A stretch of DNA of 30,272 bases from the sequence record ON239131; one strand, 5' to 3'. Below are positions 4,082-16,240 of the stretch, in pieces; position 1 is the stretch's first letter; every line of letters begins with the position of its first letter. The DNA is from Escherichia phage S164. The position numbers and the translations under genes were made by a program. Below the pieces are notes generated by a model, which was given only the letters and a program-made list of their open reading frames with translations, made no database searches and was not told where the DNA came from.

Positions 4082-5155
4082 ATGCGCCAGGAAACCCGCT
4101 TTAAATTTAATGCCTACCTGTCCCGTGTTGCCGAACTGAACGGCATCGACGCCGGTGATGTGTCGAAAAAATTCACCGTTGAACCGTCGGTCACCCAGAC
4201 CCTGATGAACACCATGCAGGAGTCCTCTGATTTTCTGACCCGCATCAACATTGTGCCGGTCAGCGAAATGAAAGGGGAAAAAATTGGTATTGGTGTCACC
4301 GGCTCCATCGCCAGCACCACCGACACCGCCGGTGGCACCGAGCGTCAGCCGAAGGACTTCTCGAAGCTGGCGTCCAGTAAGTACGAATGCGACCAGATTA
4401 ACTTCGATTTTTATATCCGCTACAAAACGCTGGACCTGTGGGCGCGTTATCAGGATTTCCAGCTCCGTGTCCGTAACGCCATTATCAAACGTCAGTCCCT
4501 TGATTTAATCATGGCCGGTTTTAACGGCGTGAAGCGTGCCGAAACCTCTGACCGCAGCAGCAATCCGATGCTGCAGGATGTGGCGGTCGGCTGGCTGCAG
4601 AAATACCGCAATGAAGCCCCGGCGCGCGTGATGAGCAAGGTTACTGACGAGGAAGGTCACACCACCTCTGAGGTCATCCGCGTGGGTAAGGGCGGTGATT
4701 ATGCCAGCCTCGATGCACTGGTGATGGATGCGACCAACAACCTGATTGAGCCGTGGTATCAGGAAGACCCTGACCTTGTGGTGATTGTGGGGCGTCAGTT
4801 ACTGGCGGACAAGTATTTCCCCATCGTTAACAAGGAGCAGGACAACAGCGAAATGCTGGCCGCTGACGTCATCATCAGCCAGAAACGCATCGGTAACCTG
4901 CCGGCGGTACGCGTCCCGTACTTCCCGGCGGATGCGATGCTCATCACGAAGCTGGAAAACCTGTCCATCTACTACATGGATGACAGCCATCGCCGCGTGA
5001 TTGAGGAAAACCCGAAACTCGACCGCGTGGAGAACTACGAGTCAATGAACATTGATTACGTGGTGGAAGACTACGCCGCCGGTTGTCTGGTGGAAAAAAT
5101 TAAGGTCGGTGACTTCTCCACACCGACTAAAGTGACCGCAGAGCCGGGAGCGTAA
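4082..5155 (+). CDS. N: Major capsid protein
   Basis: 357 aa, same length and position as P2 gpN. Confidence 0.9.
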   Translation: MRQETRFKFNAYLSRVAELNGIDAGDVSKKFTVEPSVTQTLMNTMQESSDFLTRINIVPVSEMKGEKIGIGVTGSIASTTDTAGGTERQPKDFSKLASSKYECDQINFDFYIRYKTLDLWARYQDFQLRVRNAIIKRQSLDLIMAGFNGVKRAETSDRSSNPMLQDVAVGWLQKYRNEAPARVMSKVTDEEGHTTSEVIRVGKGGDYASLDALVMDATNNLIEPWYQEDPDLVVIVGRQLLADKYFPIVNKEQDNSEMLAADVIISQKRIGNLPAVRVPYFPADAMLITKLENLSIYYMDDSHRRVIEENPKLDRVENYESMNIDYVVEDYAAGCLVEKIKVGDFSTPTKVTAEPGA

Positions 5156-5158
5156 CCG

Positions 5159-5902
5159 ATGACGAGTCCCGCACAGCGCCACATGATGCGGGTCTCGGCA
5201 GCGATGACCGCGCAGCGGGACGCCGCCCCGCTGCGACATGCAACTGTCTATGAGCAGATGCTGGTCAAGCTGGCCGCAGACCAGCGCACACTGAAAGCGA
5301 TTTATTCAAAAGAGCTGAAGGCCGCGAAAAAACGCGAACTGCTGCCGTTCTGGTTGCCGTGGGTGAACGGCGTGCTGGAGCAGGGCAAAGGTGCACAGGA
5401 TGACATTCTGATGACGGTCATGCTGTGGCGTCTGGATACCGGCGATATTGCCGGTGCGCTGGAGATTGCCCGTTATGCCCTGAAGTACGGTCTGACCATG
5501 CCGGGTAAACACCGCCGCACCCCGCCGTACATGTTCACCGAGGAGGTGGCGCTTGCGGCCATGCGCGCTCACGCTGCCGGTGAGTCTGTGGATCCCCGCC
5601 TGCTGACGGACACCCTCGAACTGACCGCCACGGCTGACATGCCTGATGAAGTGCGCGCAAAGCTGCACAAAATCACCGGTCTGTTTCTGCGTGACGCTGG
5701 TGATGCCGCAGGTGCGCTGGTACACCTGCAACGTGCGACACAGCTCGACTGTCAGGCAGGCGTCAAAAAAGAGATTGAACGACTGGAGCGGGAGCTGAAA
5801 CCGAAGCCGGAGCCGCAGCCCAAAGCGGCCACCCGCACTCCGCGTAAGACCCGGAGCGTGACACCGGCAAAACGTGGACGCCCGAAAAAGAAAACCAGTT
5901 AA
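5159..5902 (+). CDS. M: Terminase small subunit / endonuclease
   Basis: 247 aa, same as P2 gpM; basic Lys/Arg/Pro-rich C-terminal tail. Confidence 0.85.
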   Translation: MTSPAQRHMMRVSAAMTAQRDAAPLRHATVYEQMLVKLAADQRTLKAIYSKELKAAKKRELLPFWLPWVNGVLEQGKGAQDDILMTVMLWRLDTGDIAGALEIARYALKYGLTMPGKHRRTPPYMFTEEVALAAMRAHAAGESVDPRLLTDTLELTATADMPDEVRAKLHKITGLFLRDAGDAAGALVHLQRATQLDCQAGVKKEIERLERELKPKPEPQPKAATRTPRKTRSVTPAKRGRPKKKTS

Positions 5903-11328: not shown

Positions 11329-11932
11329 TTCGCGCCTGCTGCCGACCGGCTCATCACCGCTTGAGGTCGCCGCCGCAAAAGCCTGTGCGGAAATTGAAAA
11401 AACGCCGGTCAGTATTCGTGAGCTGTGGAACCCGGACACCTGCCCGGCAAATCTGCTGCCGTGGCTGGCGTGGTCATTTTCGGTTGACCGCTGGGATGAT
11501 AAGTGGCCGGAAGCGACAAAACGCGCTGTTATCCGCGATGCGTATTTCATTCACTGCCATAAGGGCACTATAGGCGCAATCCGGCGTGTGGTGGAGCCGC
11601 TCGGCTATCTGATTGAGGTGAGGGAGTGGTGGCAACTCAACGAGGAGCCGGGGACGTTCCGCATCGTTGTTGGCGTGCTTGAGCAGGGTATTACCGAGGA
11701 AATGTATCAGGAGCTGGAGCGTCTCGTTGCTGATGCAAAACCTGCAAGCCGCCATCTGACGGGACTGGCTATCAGTTTAAGTACAACCGGCAACATTTTT
11801 GCCGGTGCGGGATGCTATCACGGCGACGCCCTGACGGTTTATCCCTACACCCCGGAGGCCATTATTGTCGGAGGGGATTATTTCCCGGCCTCGGCCATTC
11901 ATTTAATTGATAACCTGAGAGTAAACGCATGA
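11321..11932 (+). CDS. I: Baseplate / tail protein I
   Basis: 203 aa; ATGAGTGA overlap with the J stop; position between J and H. Confidence 0.8.
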   Translation: MSDSRLLPTGSSPLEVAAAKACAEIEKTPVSIRELWNPDTCPANLLPWLAWSFSVDRWDDKWPEATKRAVIRDAYFIHCHKGTIGAIRRVVEPLGYLIEVREWWQLNEEPGTFRIVVGVLEQGITEEMYQELERLVADAKPASRHLTGLAISLSTTGNIFAGAGCYHGDALTVYPYTPEAIIVGGDYFPASAIHLIDNLRVNA

Positions 11933-13344
11933 CAGTGAAATACTACGCCATTCTGACTAATCAGGGCGCGGCACGGCTGGCTAACGCGACGATGCTCGGA
12001 AGTAAGCTGAATCTGACGCAAATGGCCGTTGGTGATGCGAATGGTGTCTTGCCGACACCAGACCCGGCACAGACAAAGCTGATTAATCAGAAACGCATTG
12101 CACCGCTGAATCTTCTGAGTGTTGACCCGAACAACCAGAGCCAGATTATTGCGGAGCAAATCATCCCTGAGAACGAGGGCGGATTCTGGATCCGTGAGAT
12201 TGGGCTTTATGATGATGAAGGCGTACTCATTGCGGTGGCGAACTGCCCGGAAACGTACAAACCGCAGTTGCAGGAAGGCAGTGGTCGTACCCAGACTATC
12301 CGCATGATTCTGGTTGTCACGAACACCGAAGCCATCACGCTGAAAATCGACCCGTCGGTGGTACTGGCGACCCGTAAATACGTGGATGATAAGGTCCTGG
12401 AATTAAAGCTGTATGTGGATGACCAGATGAGAAACCACATTGCCGCACAGGATCCTCATACCCAGTATGCACAGAAACATAATCCGACATTTACCGGAGA
12501 ACCAAAAGCGCCGACGCCTGCCGCAGGAAATAACACCACGCGGATTGCGACTACTGCGTTTGTTCAGGCCGCTATTACCGCTCTGATTAACGGTGCGCCA
12601 GCCACGCTGGACACACTGAAAGAAATTGCCGCAGCCATTAACAATGACCCGAAATTCAGTACCACCATTAACAATGCGCTGGCACTAAAAGCCCCGCTGT
12701 CGAGTCCGGCACTCACCGGAACGCCAACAGCACCTACTGCGGCACAGTCGGTCAACAATACACAGATTGCCACCACGGCTTTTGTGAAATCAGCAATTGC
12801 GGCAATGGTGGGTTCTGCCCCTGCGGCACTGGATACACTGAATGAACTGGCGGCGGCGCTGGGGAATGACCCTAACTTTTCAACAACAGTGCTTAATGCA
12901 CTGGCAGGTAAACAACCGCTGGACAATACGCTGACTAATTTGAGTGGAAAGGATGTAGCTGGTCTTCTCGCATACCTTCAATTGGGAGAAGCGGCAAAAC
13001 GTAATGTCGGCACCGGTGCAAACCAGATACCGGACATGAACAGTTTTACGTCAGGAAGTACGACAACAGCAGACTGGTACAAGTTACCTGGTGGGTTGCT
13101 TATTCAGTCAGGGATTAATGCGGTTGGTTATATTGGTTCGCCGTTTACTATCGGTCTTCCGGTTGCATTTTCGAACGCCAATTACCGCATAGTTGCCAGT
13201 TATGACAACGCGAGAGCTAACGCAACCTACGGTTTTGCAATGTCTGCCCTCCCGTCAACTGCATCAGCATTCACAATTAACTCAAGTTCAAATGCATCAG
13301 TCGGGCCGGTTTACGCTTACTGGATTGCAATCGGTAAATACTAA
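11929..13344 (+). CDS. H: Tail fibre protein (receptor-binding); shorter than P2 gpH, with a divergent C-terminal tip
   Basis: 471 aa; P2-like N-terminus (MTVKYYAILTNQGAARLANA...); internal ~55-aa tandem repeat; LGEAAKRNVGTGANQIPDMNSF motif; C-terminal tip of the LPGGLLIQ...WIAIG type. Confidence 0.85.
   Translation: MTVKYYAILTNQGAARLANATMLGSKLNLTQMAVGDANGVLPTPDPAQTKLINQKRIAPLNLLSVDPNNQSQIIAEQIIPENEGGFWIREIGLYDDEGVLIAVANCPETYKPQLQEGSGRTQTIRMILVVTNTEAITLKIDPSVVLATRKYVDDKVLELKLYVDDQMRNHIAAQDPHTQYAQKHNPTFTGEPKAPTPAAGNNTTRIATTAFVQAAITALINGAPATLDTLKEIAAAINNDPKFSTTINNALALKAPLSSPALTGTPTAPTAAQSVNNTQIATTAFVKSAIAAMVGSAPAALDTLNELAAALGNDPNFSTTVLNALAGKQPLDNTLTNLSGKDVAGLLAYLQLGEAAKRNVGTGANQIPDMNSFTSGSTTTADWYKLPGGLLIQSGINAVGYIGSPFTIGLPVAFSNANYRIVASYDNARANATYGFAMSALPSTASAFTINSSSNASVGPVYAYWIAIGKY
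12529..12921 (+). repeat. Two tandem copies of a ~55-aa repeat inside tail fibre H (about 12529-12699 and 12754-12921)
   Basis: Protein copies NTTRIATTAFVQAAITALINGAPATLDTLKEIAAAINNDPKFSTTINNALALKAP and NNTQIATTAFVKSAIAAMVGSAPAALDTLNELAAALGNDPNFSTTVLNALAGKQP; DNA copies are diverged. Confidence 0.8.
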
Positions 13345-13356
13345 AAGGCAAATATC

Positions 13357-13779
13357 ATGGGTGAAACAGATTATATTTTCAGTGCGTTCCTGAATGGTTT
13401 TTTACCGCTGGCGTGGAAAGAAGAGAAAGAGGCAACAGGTTCGTGGCCTGATGACGCAATTGAAATAAGCTATGAAGATTATTTGAAGTTTACGACCGAT
13501 GCGCCGAAGGGAAAAATATTGGGTTCGGTTGACGGGCGACCGGCATGGGTTGATATCCCACCGCCGACACATGAAGAACTGATTGCCAGTGCAGAAGCAA
13601 CAAGATTAAGACTGAAGGCTAATGCAGATGCTGAAATCGGCTGGCGACAGGATGCCGTTGATGCGGGCATTGCGACGGACGAGGAAACCGCCATACTCGC
13701 CGAGTGGAAAAAATACCGGGTCTTGCTGATGCGCGTCGACACAGCAAAACCCGTATGGCCTACGCTTCCGACTGCATAA
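13357..13779 (+). CDS. G: Tail fibre assembly chaperone
   Basis: 140 aa; C-terminal EWKKYRVLLMRVDTAKPVWPTLP resembles the conserved C-terminal domain of lambda Tfa / Mu U-type chaperones; RBS AAGG 8 nt upstream. Confidence 0.85.
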   Translation: MGETDYIFSAFLNGFLPLAWKEEKEATGSWPDDAIEISYEDYLKFTTDAPKGKILGSVDGRPAWVDIPPPTHEELIASAEATRLRLKANADAEIGWRQDAVDAGIATDEETAILAEWKKYRVLLMRVDTAKPVWPTLPTA

Positions 13780-14023
13780 TATCAATTAATATCGGTTCGC
13801 CGTTCTCATCGACGGCGAGCATTTTCCCAGCCGGTATTTCTGTTGCGGTAAAAAACCAGTTATCATCCGGCAGTTCTACGGCCCCTTCAGTGCTATGAAT
13901 GCCGGGGATAACTTCATTAAGTGTCTCAGGATTAAAAAGGCGCATAGCGAGCACTCCAATAAAAACCGTCAGCGGATGTTGTTCCATCAGATCGTAATAC
14001 AAGAAAAGTAGCTTTTGTTGCAT
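13760..14023 (-). CDS. Alternative tail-fibre assembly chaperone, N-terminal domain only (U'-like fragment)
   Basis: 87-aa minus-strand ORF; ...AGKMLAVDENGEPILIDIMQSEA resembles the N-terminal domain of Tfa/U chaperones but lacks the conserved C-terminal domain; 3' end overlaps the G 3' end; 5' start uncertain because it overlaps the next ORF by 92 nt. Confidence 0.45.
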   Translation of the reverse strand: MQQKLLFLYYDLMEQHPLTVFIGVLAMRLFNPETLNEVIPGIHSTEGAVELPDDNWFFTATEIPAGKMLAVDENGEPILIDIMQSEA

Positions 14024-14369
14024 CAGTTAAATCAGTTATGACCATCGGTACCCTGACCTTATAAGGGGTTGCTGATGACAATAACAGCGGAGTGGTAGTG
14101 ATAACCTGTGCAGGAGCAGGCAGAGAAATCGGATAATAAACCGCAGCATTTCCCGATATGTTAGCCACAGCATTTCCCCACACCTCTATAGTGCCATCGC
14201 TCCAGATTCGGTATTTACCATTCGCATTCGAGCCTGTTTTAGTCACCACGGCACATTTATCTGTATCGGTATTAACGTTACCAATCAGTGCCAATTTTCC
14301 ACTGGTATTTCCCGCTTCTGCTAAACGAACGTTTATGAAAATGCAGAGATAACGGGTAACTGGCATCAT
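13932..14369 (-). CDS. Alternative tail-fibre C-terminal receptor-binding tip (Sv'-like), not fused to H in this orientation
   Basis: 145-aa minus-strand ORF; ...GKYRIWSDGTIEVWG...FYWSARYAPF parallels the C-terminal tip of H; a stop lies 4 codons upstream of its ATG; region is AT-richer than the core genome. Confidence 0.55.
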   Translation of the reverse strand: MMPVTRYLCIFINVRLAEAGNTSGKLALIGNVNTDTDKCAVVTKTGSNANGKYRIWSDGTIEVWGNAVANISGNAAVYYPISLPAPAQVITTTPLLLSSATPYKVRVPMVITDLTDATKATFLVLRSDGTTSADGFYWSARYAPF

Positions 14370-14396
14370 CTCCGGTTTTTATTCAGGGGGATGCTC

Positions 14397-14990
14397 ATGC
14401 TTATTGGCTATGTACGCGTGTCAACAAATGACCAGAACACGGAATTGCAGCGTAACGCGCTGGAGTGCGCGGGATGTGAGCGGATTTTTGAGGACAAAAT
14501 CAGCGGCACGAAGTCCGACCGACCGGGACTGAAAAAACTGCTCAGAACATTATCAGCAGGTGACACTCTGGTAGTCTGGAAGCTGGACAGGCTGGGGCGT
14601 AGTATGCGGCATCTGGTCATTCTGGTTGAGGAACTGCGCGAACGCGGCGTTAATTTTCGCAGCCTGACAGATGCTATTGATACCAGCACGCCGATGGGGC
14701 GTTTTTTCTTTCATGTGATGGGTGCCCTGGCTGAAATGGAGCGAGAACTCATTGTCGAGCGGACACGCGCCGGACTGGAAGCGGCCAGAGCTAAAGGTCG
14801 TATTGGTGGCAGACGTCCGAAACTCACCGCGAGTGAGTGGGAGCAGGCCGGGCGGTTGCTGGCTGCAGGGGAATCACGTCAACGCGTGGCACTGATTTTT
14901 GATATTGGCCTGTCCACGCTCTATAAAAAATTCCCCGCCTCAGTGACAAAAAATAAATTGTGTCATCCCTTAGCCAACCGGGACAAATAG
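14397..14990 (+). CDS. Serine-recombinase DNA invertase (Hin/Gin/Cin/Pin family)
   Basis: N-terminus MLIGYVRVSTNDQNTELQRNAL... with catalytic Ser; GDTLVVWKLDRLGRS; MGRFFFHVMGALAEMERELIVERT; C-terminal HTH (GLSTLYKKF). ORF opens at 14391, but the Met at 14397 has better RBS spacing (AGGGGG). Confidence 0.9.
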   Translation: MLIGYVRVSTNDQNTELQRNALECAGCERIFEDKISGTKSDRPGLKKLLRTLSAGDTLVVWKLDRLGRSMRHLVILVEELRERGVNFRSLTDAIDTSTPMGRFFFHVMGALAEMERELIVERTRAGLEAARAKGRIGGRRPKLTASEWEQAGRLLAAGESRQRVALIFDIGLSTLYKKFPASVTKNKLCHPLANRDK

Positions 14991-15049
14991 CCTGACATCT
15001 CCGGCACAACTGAAAATATCACTCACCCATTAACCACGGAGTTAAACGG

Positions 15050-16240
15050 ATGAGTGACTATCATCACGGCGTGCAGGTGCTGGAGATTAACGACGGCACC
15101 CGCGTCATTTCCACCGTATCCACTGCCATTGTCGGCATGGTCTGCACGGCCAGCGATGCGGATGCGGAAACCTTCCCCCTCAATAAACCGGTGCTGATTA
15201 CCAATGTGCAGAGCGCAATTGCAAAGGCCGGTAAAAAAGGCACGCTGGCGGCATCGTTGCAGGCCATCGCCGACCAGTCAAAACCGGTCACCGTTGTCGT
15301 GCGTGTGGAAGACGGCACCGGCGACGACGAGGAAACGAAACTCGCGCAGACCGTTTCCAATATCATCGGCACCACTGACGAAAACGGTCAGTACACCGGA
15401 CTGAAAGCCCTGCTGGCGGCGGAGTCGGTAACCGGTGTTAAACCGCGTATTCTTGGTGTGCCGGGGCTGGATACCAAAGAGGTGGCTGTTGCACTGGCAT
15501 CAGTCTGTCAGAAGCTGCGCGCTTTCGGATATATCAGCGCATGGGGCTGTAAAACCATTTCCGAGGTGAAAGCCTACCGCCAGAATTTCAGCCAGCGTGA
15601 GCTGATGGTCATCTGGCCGGATTTCCTCGCATGGGATACGGTCACCAGTACCACCGCCACCGCGTATGCCACCGCCCGTGCGCTGGGTCTGCGCGCTAAA
15701 GTCGACCAGGAGCAGGGCTGGCATAAAACGCTGTCCAACGTCGGGGTAAACGGTGTTACCGGCATCAGCGCCTCTGTATTCTGGGATTTGCAGGAGTCCG
15801 GCACCGATGCTGACCTGCTTAACGAGTCAGGCGTCACTACGCTGATTCGCCGCGACGGTTTCCGATTCTGGGGTAACCGTACCTGCTCTGATGACCCGCT
15901 GTTCCTCTTTGAAAACTACACCCGCACCGCGCAGGTGCTGGCCGACACGATGGCTGAGGCGCACATGTGGGCGGTGGACAAGCCCATCACCGCAACGCTG
16001 ATTCGCGACATCGTTGACGGCATCAATGCCAAATTCCGTGAGCTGAAAACAAACGGCTATATCGTGGATGCGACCTGCTGGTTCAGCGAAGAATCCAACG
16101 ATGCGGAAACCCTCAAGGCCGGAAAACTGTATATCGACTACGACTATACCCCGGTGCCTCCTCTCGAAAACCTGACCCTGCGCCAGCGTATTACCGATAA
16201 ATACCTGGCAAATCTGGTCACCTCGGTTAACAGCAATTAA
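15050..16240 (+). CDS. FI: Tail sheath protein
   Basis: 396 aa, same as P2 gpFI. Confidence 0.9.
   Translation: MSDYHHGVQVLEINDGTRVISTVSTAIVGMVCTASDADAETFPLNKPVLITNVQSAIAKAGKKGTLAASLQAIADQSKPVTVVVRVEDGTGDDEETKLAQTVSNIIGTTDENGQYTGLKALLAAESVTGVKPRILGVPGLDTKEVAVALASVCQKLRAFGYISAWGCKTISEVKAYRQNFSQRELMVIWPDFLAWDTVTSTTATAYATARALGLRAKVDQEQGWHKTLSNVGVNGVTGISASVFWDLQESGTDADLLNESGVTTLIRRDGFRFWGNRTCSDDPLFLFENYTRTAQVLADTMAEAHMWAVDKPITATLIRDIVDGINAKFRELKTNGYIVDATCWFSEESNDAETLKAGKLYIDYDYTPVPPLENLTLRQRITDKYLANLVTSVNSN

Follow-up and report, generated by a model that had tools for sequence, protein, structure and literature searches.

Results

An invertase cassette lies between G and FI of phage S164

Escherichia phage S164 is a P2-like phage whose complete genome of 30,272 nt makes up the whole of the stretch analysed here (the window). 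Genes follow a P2-like order, with portal, terminase, capsid and lysis genes followed by V-W-J-I-H-G and then FI-FII-E-T-U-D, and the cassette described here occupies the Z/fun slot, between G and FI, of the late operon. A literature search by phage name turned up no paper on S164. The tail-fibre gene H (11929-13344; URP83679.1) encodes a 471-aa protein with a Phage_tail_fib N-terminal domain and a Gp53-like_C tip (Pfam), and is followed by G, a typical member of the two-domain Tfa family of tail-fibre assembly proteins (Mu U/TfaMu, lambda Tfa; Pfam Caudo_TAP). Beyond G lie two minus-strand genes, encoding a small protein that we call G' (URP83681.1) and a second fibre tip, and then the gene for a serine invertase (URP83682.1); the accessions given are those of the exact S164 proteins. 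The coordinates of all features are collected in Table 1.

Table 1 Genes, sites and segment boundaries of the S164 tail-fibre cassette (coordinates in the window)
Feature	Coordinates	Strand	Basis
H, constant part (residues 1-350)	11929..12976	+	Outside the invertible segment; Pfam Phage_tail_fib E=3e-62
Left 26-bp crossover site, TTCTCGCATACC TT CAATTGGGAGAA	12965..12990	+	Core TT at 12977-12978; within H codons LAYLQLGE; PWM score 20.0
Invertible segment, 1353 bp including both cores	12977..14329		Cassette identity and junctions in related loci
Hv, variable C-terminal tip of H, expressed at present	12979..13344	+	Gp53-like_C E=1e-12, residues 385-469 (Pfam)
G, full-length tail-fibre assembly protein for Hv, 140 aa	13357..13779	+	Caudo_TAP E=6e-31; phrog_188 E=2.5e-46
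G', conserved 61-aa partner gene of tip'	13760..13945	-	P0038; 78-cluster family; phrog_5400 E=6e-17; phrog_188 E=4e-4
tip' (H'v), silent alternative C-terminal tip, 131 residues within the segment	13932..14327	-	Matches the C-terminal end of P0002, a Mu-like fibre, at 100% identity
Right 26-bp crossover site, TTCTGCTAAACG AA CGTTTATGAAAA	14316..14341	+	Core AA at 14328-14329; PWM score 22.2
Gin/Pin-type serine DNA invertase, 197 aa	14397..14990	+	PF00239 Resolvase E=8e-53; PF02796 HTH_7 E=6e-13; phrog_125 E=2e-101
Candidate Fis-dependent recombinational enhancer, 5' end of the invertase gene	14418..14481	+	G-N13-C 15-mers at 14418-14432 and 14467-14481; placed by position

An initial annotation, made from the sequence alone, had read the minus-strand ORF at 13932-14369 as a homologue of a tail-fibre tip. 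This was correct: the ORF has a weak match to Gp53-like_C (E=5e-4, Pfam), and over 131 residues it agrees at 100% with the C-terminal end of a fibre from a Mu-like prophage. The same annotation had suggested that the locus is a host-range inversion switch resembling the Mu G or P1 C segment, but it regarded the layout as atypical and found no convincing pair of 26-bp hix/gix-type sites.

Two inverted crossover sites bound a segment that begins within H

Homology between S164 and E. coli P2-like prophages (96-97% identity) ends at ~12991 and restarts at ~14308-14330. Alignment of both of these boundaries with E. coli AH01 (L001) revealed the pair of inverted repeats that had been missed, at 12965-12990 and 14316-14341. 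Both sites have the 12-2-12 form, they are inverted with respect to each other, and their cores are complementary. We scored the genome with a PWM trained solely on half-sites of other loci and on Mu gix (i.e., non-circularly), and across all 30 kb the two sites stood above background at 22.2 and 20.0, while the next best sequence scored 11.5 and the maximum of 50 shuffles was 16.7. No third crossover site above the PWM background was found in the 30-kb genome. The outer half-sites are exactly those of AH01, and each inner half differs from its AH01 counterpart at three positions. Among the four half-sites, the left inner one, TTCTCCCAATTG, fits the family weakly, scoring 6.0 where the others score 10-14. 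Overall, the two S164 sites share 71% of positions over 34 nt. Homology of the cassette to a Mu-like prophage (L002) begins at 12977.

The sequences that had been offered as candidate sites fared differently. A supposedly perfect 14-bp palindrome at 14322-14335 forms the middle of the right site, where, in the manner of hix and gix, 6-bp arms flank an AA core that is itself not palindromic. Two further candidates, GGTTTTTATTCA at 14374-14385 and CCTGAAT/GGTTTTTT at 13389-13403, are ruled out as half-sites, as they score at most 1.3 with the PWM and no junction maps to either. At 14358-14385 there is at most a weak, terminator-like hairpin. A perfect inverted repeat of 14 nt (13395-13408/13845-13858) was also considered as another place of recombination and rejected, because its arms lie in different frames, exchange between them would introduce a premature stop, and every locus compared has a collinear cassette; this repeat is probably due to chance.

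Inversion fuses the silent tip to H in frame

In-silico inversion of 12977-14329 joined H residues 1-350 (…LLAYL) in frame to RLAEAGNTSGK… of tip', yielding an H of 481 aa with the 61-aa G' downstream and the old tip left as a silent 135-aa ORF adjoining the invertase. A natural H of 481 aa is called in a related prophage locus (L018, described below). The initial annotation had argued that the silent tip cannot simply be fused at its 5' end because it has its own ATG with a stop shortly upstream. The stop is real, but because inversion at the 2-bp cores fuses tip' in frame, both the upstream ATG (14369) and the stop are irrelevant, and the first 14 codons of the ORF (14328-14369), which lie outside the segment, are incidental. 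In the Mu RefSeq record, the silent S' CDS likewise starts outside the segment, 29 nt beyond the G boundary. Nor is the layout atypical: the order H constant part, Hv-G, G'-tip', invertase is the canonical Sc, Sv-U, U'-S'v, gin order of Mu, and E. coli P2-like prophages match it as well.

The invertase is of the Gin/Pin type and may be served by a Fis enhancer

As the initial annotation had recognized, the gene at the end of the cassette encodes a canonical serine invertase, with both Resolvase and HTH_7 domains. It bears the marks of the Hin/Gin/Cin/Pin subfamily, whose members are ~190 aa long and have an N-terminal resolvase catalytic domain with the serine motif (YVRVST...Q) and a C-terminal HTH. 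Over 181 aa, it shares 80% identity with Mu Gin, with the catalytic motifs MLIGYVRVSTNDQ and VWKLDRLGRS common to both, and is identical at 194 of 197 residues (98%) to WP_010835463.1, the invertase of the prophage found in E. coli AH01 and SCU-316. A start of the ORF at 14391 is also possible. A scan of 12800-15150 found no sigma-70 promoter for the invertase gene.

Inversion by this subfamily depends on Fis acting at a recombinational enhancer in cis, which in Gin, Hin and Cin is situated towards the 5' end of the invertase gene. The enhancer comprises two Fis sites; in Mu it is contained in gin, and in native Hin its distance from hixL is ~100 bp (PMC3798978). The S164 invertase gene contains G-N13-C 15-mers at +21 and +70, and the candidate Fis sites of Mu gin are at identical within-gene offsets; the first 15-mer lies ~96 bp away from the middle of the right site. 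Judged by position, this placement of the putative enhancer fits a two-Fis-site enhancer.

We propose a model in which invertase dimers would bind the two inverted 26-bp sites, the left of which lies in H, and would presumably be activated by Fis bound at the enhancer in the 5' end of the invertase's own gene. The invertase would then cleave at the 2-bp TT/AA cores and rotate the 1.35-kb segment. In the sequenced orientation, the phage would make H(1-350) with Hv, followed by the full-length chaperone G; in the other orientation, it would make H(1-350) with tip' in frame (i.e., the 481-aa H), followed by G'. A lysogen population would thereby release particles of two receptor specificities. 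The switch would depend on Fis, be active in S164 itself and change host range.

A conserved 61-aa gene accompanies the silent tip

The initial annotation had placed the N-terminal domain of a second chaperone at 13760-14023. A weak likeness of G' to the Tfa N-domain is indeed seen with phrog_188 (Table 1), in BLASTP against G (E=4e-4) and in hhalign against G (E=3e-3), but the gene is the 61-aa one at 13760-13945, and the 87-aa reading is the maximal ORF. It was also correctly described as lacking the conserved C-terminal domain and lying at the 3' end of G. G' had no Pfam match, and specifically none to the C-terminal domain of Caudo_TAP/PF02413 (…EWKKYRxxLxRVD…WP), even at E up to 10; G and G' overlap by 20 nt, the last six codons of each being antisense to the other. 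An AlphaFold (AF2) model of G' is a confident small beta fold (pLDDT 92), and it had no structural match among solved structures. G' thus lacks the conserved, helical C-terminal domain of Tfa proteins, and a relationship to their N-domain is probable.

G' had been taken for a chaperone fragment, but it is a conserved gene instead of debris. Its homologues form 78 clusters at 90% identity, are 56-86 aa long (mostly 57-65) and are all annotated as hypothetical. They occur in more than ten enterobacterial genera, including Escherichia, Salmonella, Citrobacter, Yersinia, Enterobacter, Hafnia, Cronobacter, Kosakonia and Erwinia. Residues 1-55 are conserved across the family, while the short tails differ in sequence and length. 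Pairwise dN/dS values, which rest on small counts, range from 0.04 to 0.56 with a median of ~0.2, and G' is 89-92% identical where the tip that precedes it is ~70% identical. Furthermore, in three loci (L010-L012) and a Cronobacter locus (L029), the tail module ends with a short fibre and a G'-type gene, with no invertase and no other Tfa.

These data bear on an alternative in which inversion occurs but leads to a non-productive state, with G' as a truncated remnant, the H-tip' protein unassembled and the minus-strand genes as decaying cargo. The lack of the conserved Tfa C-terminal domain and of a Caudo_TAP match would suit a remnant, and the 3' end of G', being the antisense of the last G codons, resembles an old deletion junction. 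Decaying cargo is, however, hard to reconcile with a short form that is always 56-86 aa long throughout the family, with the conservation of residues 1-55 at low dN/dS, or with a gene that evolves more slowly than its tip. In addition, a fibre plus the small gene constitutes the sole fibre module of L010-L012 and L029, and the orientation in which tip' is expressed is common. We consider a non-productive alternative state improbable.

In published work on Tfa proteins (PMC9608196, citing North et al. 2019), the variable N-domain is reported to bind the fibre and the conserved C-domain to mediate its trimerisation; by this division of roles, G' looks like a free-standing N-domain-type partner. 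In the proposed switch, G' would be sufficient for the folding or function of tip'. Fibres in the H-tip' orientation might nevertheless be poorly assembled, as G' is without the Tfa C-terminal domain.

Related prophages carry the same cassette in both orientations

A first search for tip' homologues found no ~480-aa fused form, and the exact 481-aa fusion and exact 135-aa silent Hv predicted for S164 are absent from a collection of 15 billion proteins. Together, these results had suggested a locked switch, a reading that was overturned by the contigs encoding exactly G'. The 61-aa protein (P0038) occurs on many contigs, and looking up those that encode it led to ten distinct places. Among the contigs encoding the exact G' (places not displayed included), tip' is silent in nine and expressed in five.

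Two P2-like prophages (L015 and L017) are arranged as in S164, with H of 471 aa, G of 140 aa, G' of 61 aa, a silent tip' of 145 aa and the invertase. Two others (L018 and L020) have the predicted inverted arrangement, in which G' is again 61 aa and Hv is a silent 135-aa ORF adjoining the invertase; the gene upstream of G' is uncalled in L020, hence the count of 481 aa for H comes from L018. Comparison of L018 with L017 revealed flanks that are 98.0-98.6% identical and a cassette that is 99.4% identical and inverted, and a table of the junctions showed that the two are reciprocal recombinants, with the exchange falling exactly at the TT core. The comparison with related prophages proposed in the initial annotation found the same cassette in both orientations.

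The cassette is not confined to P2-like prophages. A Mu-like prophage (L002/L021) carries it, with tip' fused to a 226-aa Mu-type fibre, and the L002 and S164 cassettes are 99.85% identical over 1362 nt but in opposite orientation relative to the constant gene and the invertase. A third tail module (Phage_Wedge1) carries the cassette in one orientation in L013, L014, L016 and L019 and in the other in L022. Across L013-L022, the cassette (12974-14341) is 99.3-100% identical with both orientations represented, and the breakpoint is the crossover core in all cassette-bearing backbones compared. The S164 cassette is comparatively rare: among complete E. coli RefSeq genomes and phage records, none covered at least 80% of it.

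Opposite states are also found in further loci. One and the same prophage is present in E. coli AH01 and SCU-316 (flank identities of 99.7% and 98.9%); between the two, the segment is inverted at the TT core, and the outer half-sites equal those of S164. Likewise, two P2-like contigs of 34,013 nt each (L026 and L027), whose G' homologue is 72% identical, are in opposite states.

The switch could still be a fossil locked in S164 itself, either because the left inner half has drifted (AAACC to AATTG beside the core) or because the enhancer or invertase is impaired, so that fibres always carry Hv. The score of only 6.0 for that half-site, the absence of the exact S164 inverted-state proteins from the collection and the existence of invertase-less locked derivatives in other backbones (L010-L012, L029) would all be in keeping with such a lock. 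Yet the same half-sites are found in both orientations in nature (L015 has all four exactly as in S164, and L017/L018 depart from them by one nucleotide), and the weak inner half itself recurs at the recombined junctions of L020, L021 and L022. The invertase gene is not truncated, and its product shares 98% identity with one tied to both orientations, and Salmonella hixR likewise has one poor half-site. A locked switch is thus unlikely, and less probable still than a non-productive alternative state.

Multi-site inversion is known from the Min system of p15B, and the invertase might in principle pair with a site elsewhere in the host or phage, in a shufflon-like manner, and not with the site in H. 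This is very improbable: although a P2-like locus with three IRs in EPEC is multi-site (PMC4272514), the 30-kb S164 genome has just two sites above background, and all related loci fit simple two-state inversion of a collinear cassette.

Together, these data support the core reading of the initial annotation, a host-range inversion switch resembling Mu G and P1 C. Its fallback proposals of a decayed switch, non-canonical sites or a partner in the host give way to canonical 12-2-12 sites, an in-frame fusion, relatives with the same cassette both ways round and no third site in the window. S164 very likely carries a complete, probably active tail-fibre inversion switch of the Mu-G/P1-C/e14-P type.

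Discussion

Tail-fibre inversion by Gin, Cin and Pin is classical and has been textbook material since Mu, P1 and e14. The S164 switch itself adds nothing conceptually to these systems; the 61-aa G' in place of a full-length fibre chaperone is its only unusual part, and the small G' family is the only item that is modestly novel.

The Mu G segment (Gin; S/U versus S'/U') has the same gene order as S164, 26-bp 12-2-12 sites and an invertase to which that of S164 is 80% identical. It differs in its backbone (Mu versus P2-like), in segment length (3 kb versus 1.35 kb) and in its core (TC/GA versus TT/AA), and its 34-bp IRs are near-perfect, whereas the S164 sites agree at 71% over 34 nt. Mu also has a full-length U' where S164 has a second chaperone of 61 aa that is N-domain only. 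A full-length Tfa for each tip (U, U') is a typical but not strictly defining feature of such switches, and S164 departs from it as the bearer of a variant cassette.

The e14 P segment with Pin (pinE) and the E. coli P2-like prophage loci (EPEC E2348/69, AH01, SCU-316) share with S164 the slot between G and FI, the outer half-sites and a 98% identical invertase. S164 differs from them in its rarer cassette, its diverged inner half-sites and its 61-aa G'. Inversion in the EPEC P2-like prophages has been demonstrated by sequencing and PCR (PMC4272514), and invertases with inverted fibre genes have been reported at the P2 Z/fun hotspot (bioRxiv 10.1101/2024.10.15.618418).

Salmonella Hin/hix and P1 Cin/cix have invertases in the same subfamily as that of S164; their sites are 26 bp long around a 2-bp core, with an enhancer situated ~100 bp away from one of them (PMC3798978). 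Hin flips a promoter, whereas the S164 invertase would flip coding tips. P1 C has long inverted repeats of 0.6 kb, unlike S164.

For the annotation of S164, these results mean that H has two alternative C-termini, that the silent tip corresponds to the 145-aa ORF labelled "hypothetical" and that the 87-aa ORF with the same label should be shortened to a gene of 61 aa. More broadly, a conserved partner of ~60 residues challenges the view that Tfa chaperones require the conserved C-terminal domain. A single receptor-binding cassette that is >99% identical and common to three tail backbones, with breakpoints at a 2-bp core, is relevant to host-range engineering. We regard both the G' family and a cassette that is portable between tail backbones as modest leads.

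These leads point to a broader idea that we put forward tentatively, as plausible but somewhat less probable than its opposite. The G' family may comprise widespread minimal fibre partners, similar to the Tfa N-domain but without the trimerising C-domain and acting as a chaperone or a retained cap, that suffice for one family of Gp53-like_C tips, and the cassette may move between P2-like, Mu-like and "Phage_Wedge1"-type tail modules, which are unrelated myovirus modules, by exchange precisely at the invertase crossover core. If this is true, invertase sites would be portable docking points for receptor-binding modules.

A conserved small gene accompanies the fibre tips

The G' gene beside the silent tip (window 13760-13945, minus strand; related loci L003-L029) belongs to a family of ~60-residue proteins that comprises 78 clusters in >10 enterobacterial genera and carries no annotation. 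In all loci examined among L003-L029, the family member lies directly 3' of a short-fibre or Gp53-like_C tip gene, and in some prophages it is the sole companion of the fibre gene. The S164 GenBank record looks wrong at G', because it deposits an 87-aa maximal ORF (URP83681.1, window 13760-14023) where the conserved gene encodes 61 aa. The silent-tip ORF (13932-14369 in S164) is deposited in relatives as a separate 137-145-aa 'hypothetical protein'.

G and G' also share a perfect 14-nt inverted repeat, TGGTTTTTTACCGC, whose arms (window 13395-13408 and 13845-13858) fall in the 5' part of G and in the conserved NWFF motif of G' and are read in different frames. The chance expectation for such a repeat in a region of that size is ~0.003-0.02, and no rearrangement at the repeat was found in any related locus.

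Between the right crossover site and the invertase gene, the 'GGTTTTTATTCA half-site' of the initial annotation falls within a weak terminator-like hairpin. A scan of positions 12800-15150 revealed no sigma-70-like promoter that could serve the invertase.

Features flanking the invertase and in locked relatives
Feature	Location	Sequence	Description
Weak terminator-like hairpin	window 14358-14385	AACTGGCATCATCTCCGGTT, then TTTATTC	Between right site and invertase start
Locked derivatives	L010-L012 (4680-5000); L029 (3001-3400)		Expressed orientation; fibre and small G'-family gene kept

Remodelling and possible exchange of the cassette

The locked derivatives have lost both the invertase and the segment's remaining half, and in L010 the convergent Tfa (tail-fibre assembly gene) 3' end is reduced to ~20 nt. 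In the P2-like locus L004, two pieces of additional debris lie 3' of the 61-aa gene (4833-5164): what is left, in antisense, of the 3' end of a Tfa gene, and a 69-aa C-terminal fragment of a Caudo_TAP protein, separate from it. These remnants indicate that the cassette has been replaced or deleted repeatedly at this point. The complete genome of E. coli SCU-316 (L024; NZ_CP054371.1 14880-21105) carries many frameshifts across the fibre-switch region, with H, both Tfa genes and the tip flagged as pseudogenes and 48 gaps in its alignment to E. coli AH01. These frameshifts look like assembly errors, not biology.

The 1.35-kb cassette (window 12977-14329) is common to P2-like, Mu-like and Phage_Wedge1-type tail modules at >99% identity (L002, L013-L022), and in these loci its homology breakpoints lie exactly at the 2-bp crossover core. 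This coincidence suggests that the invertase sites may be a route by which the cassette is exchanged between tail modules.
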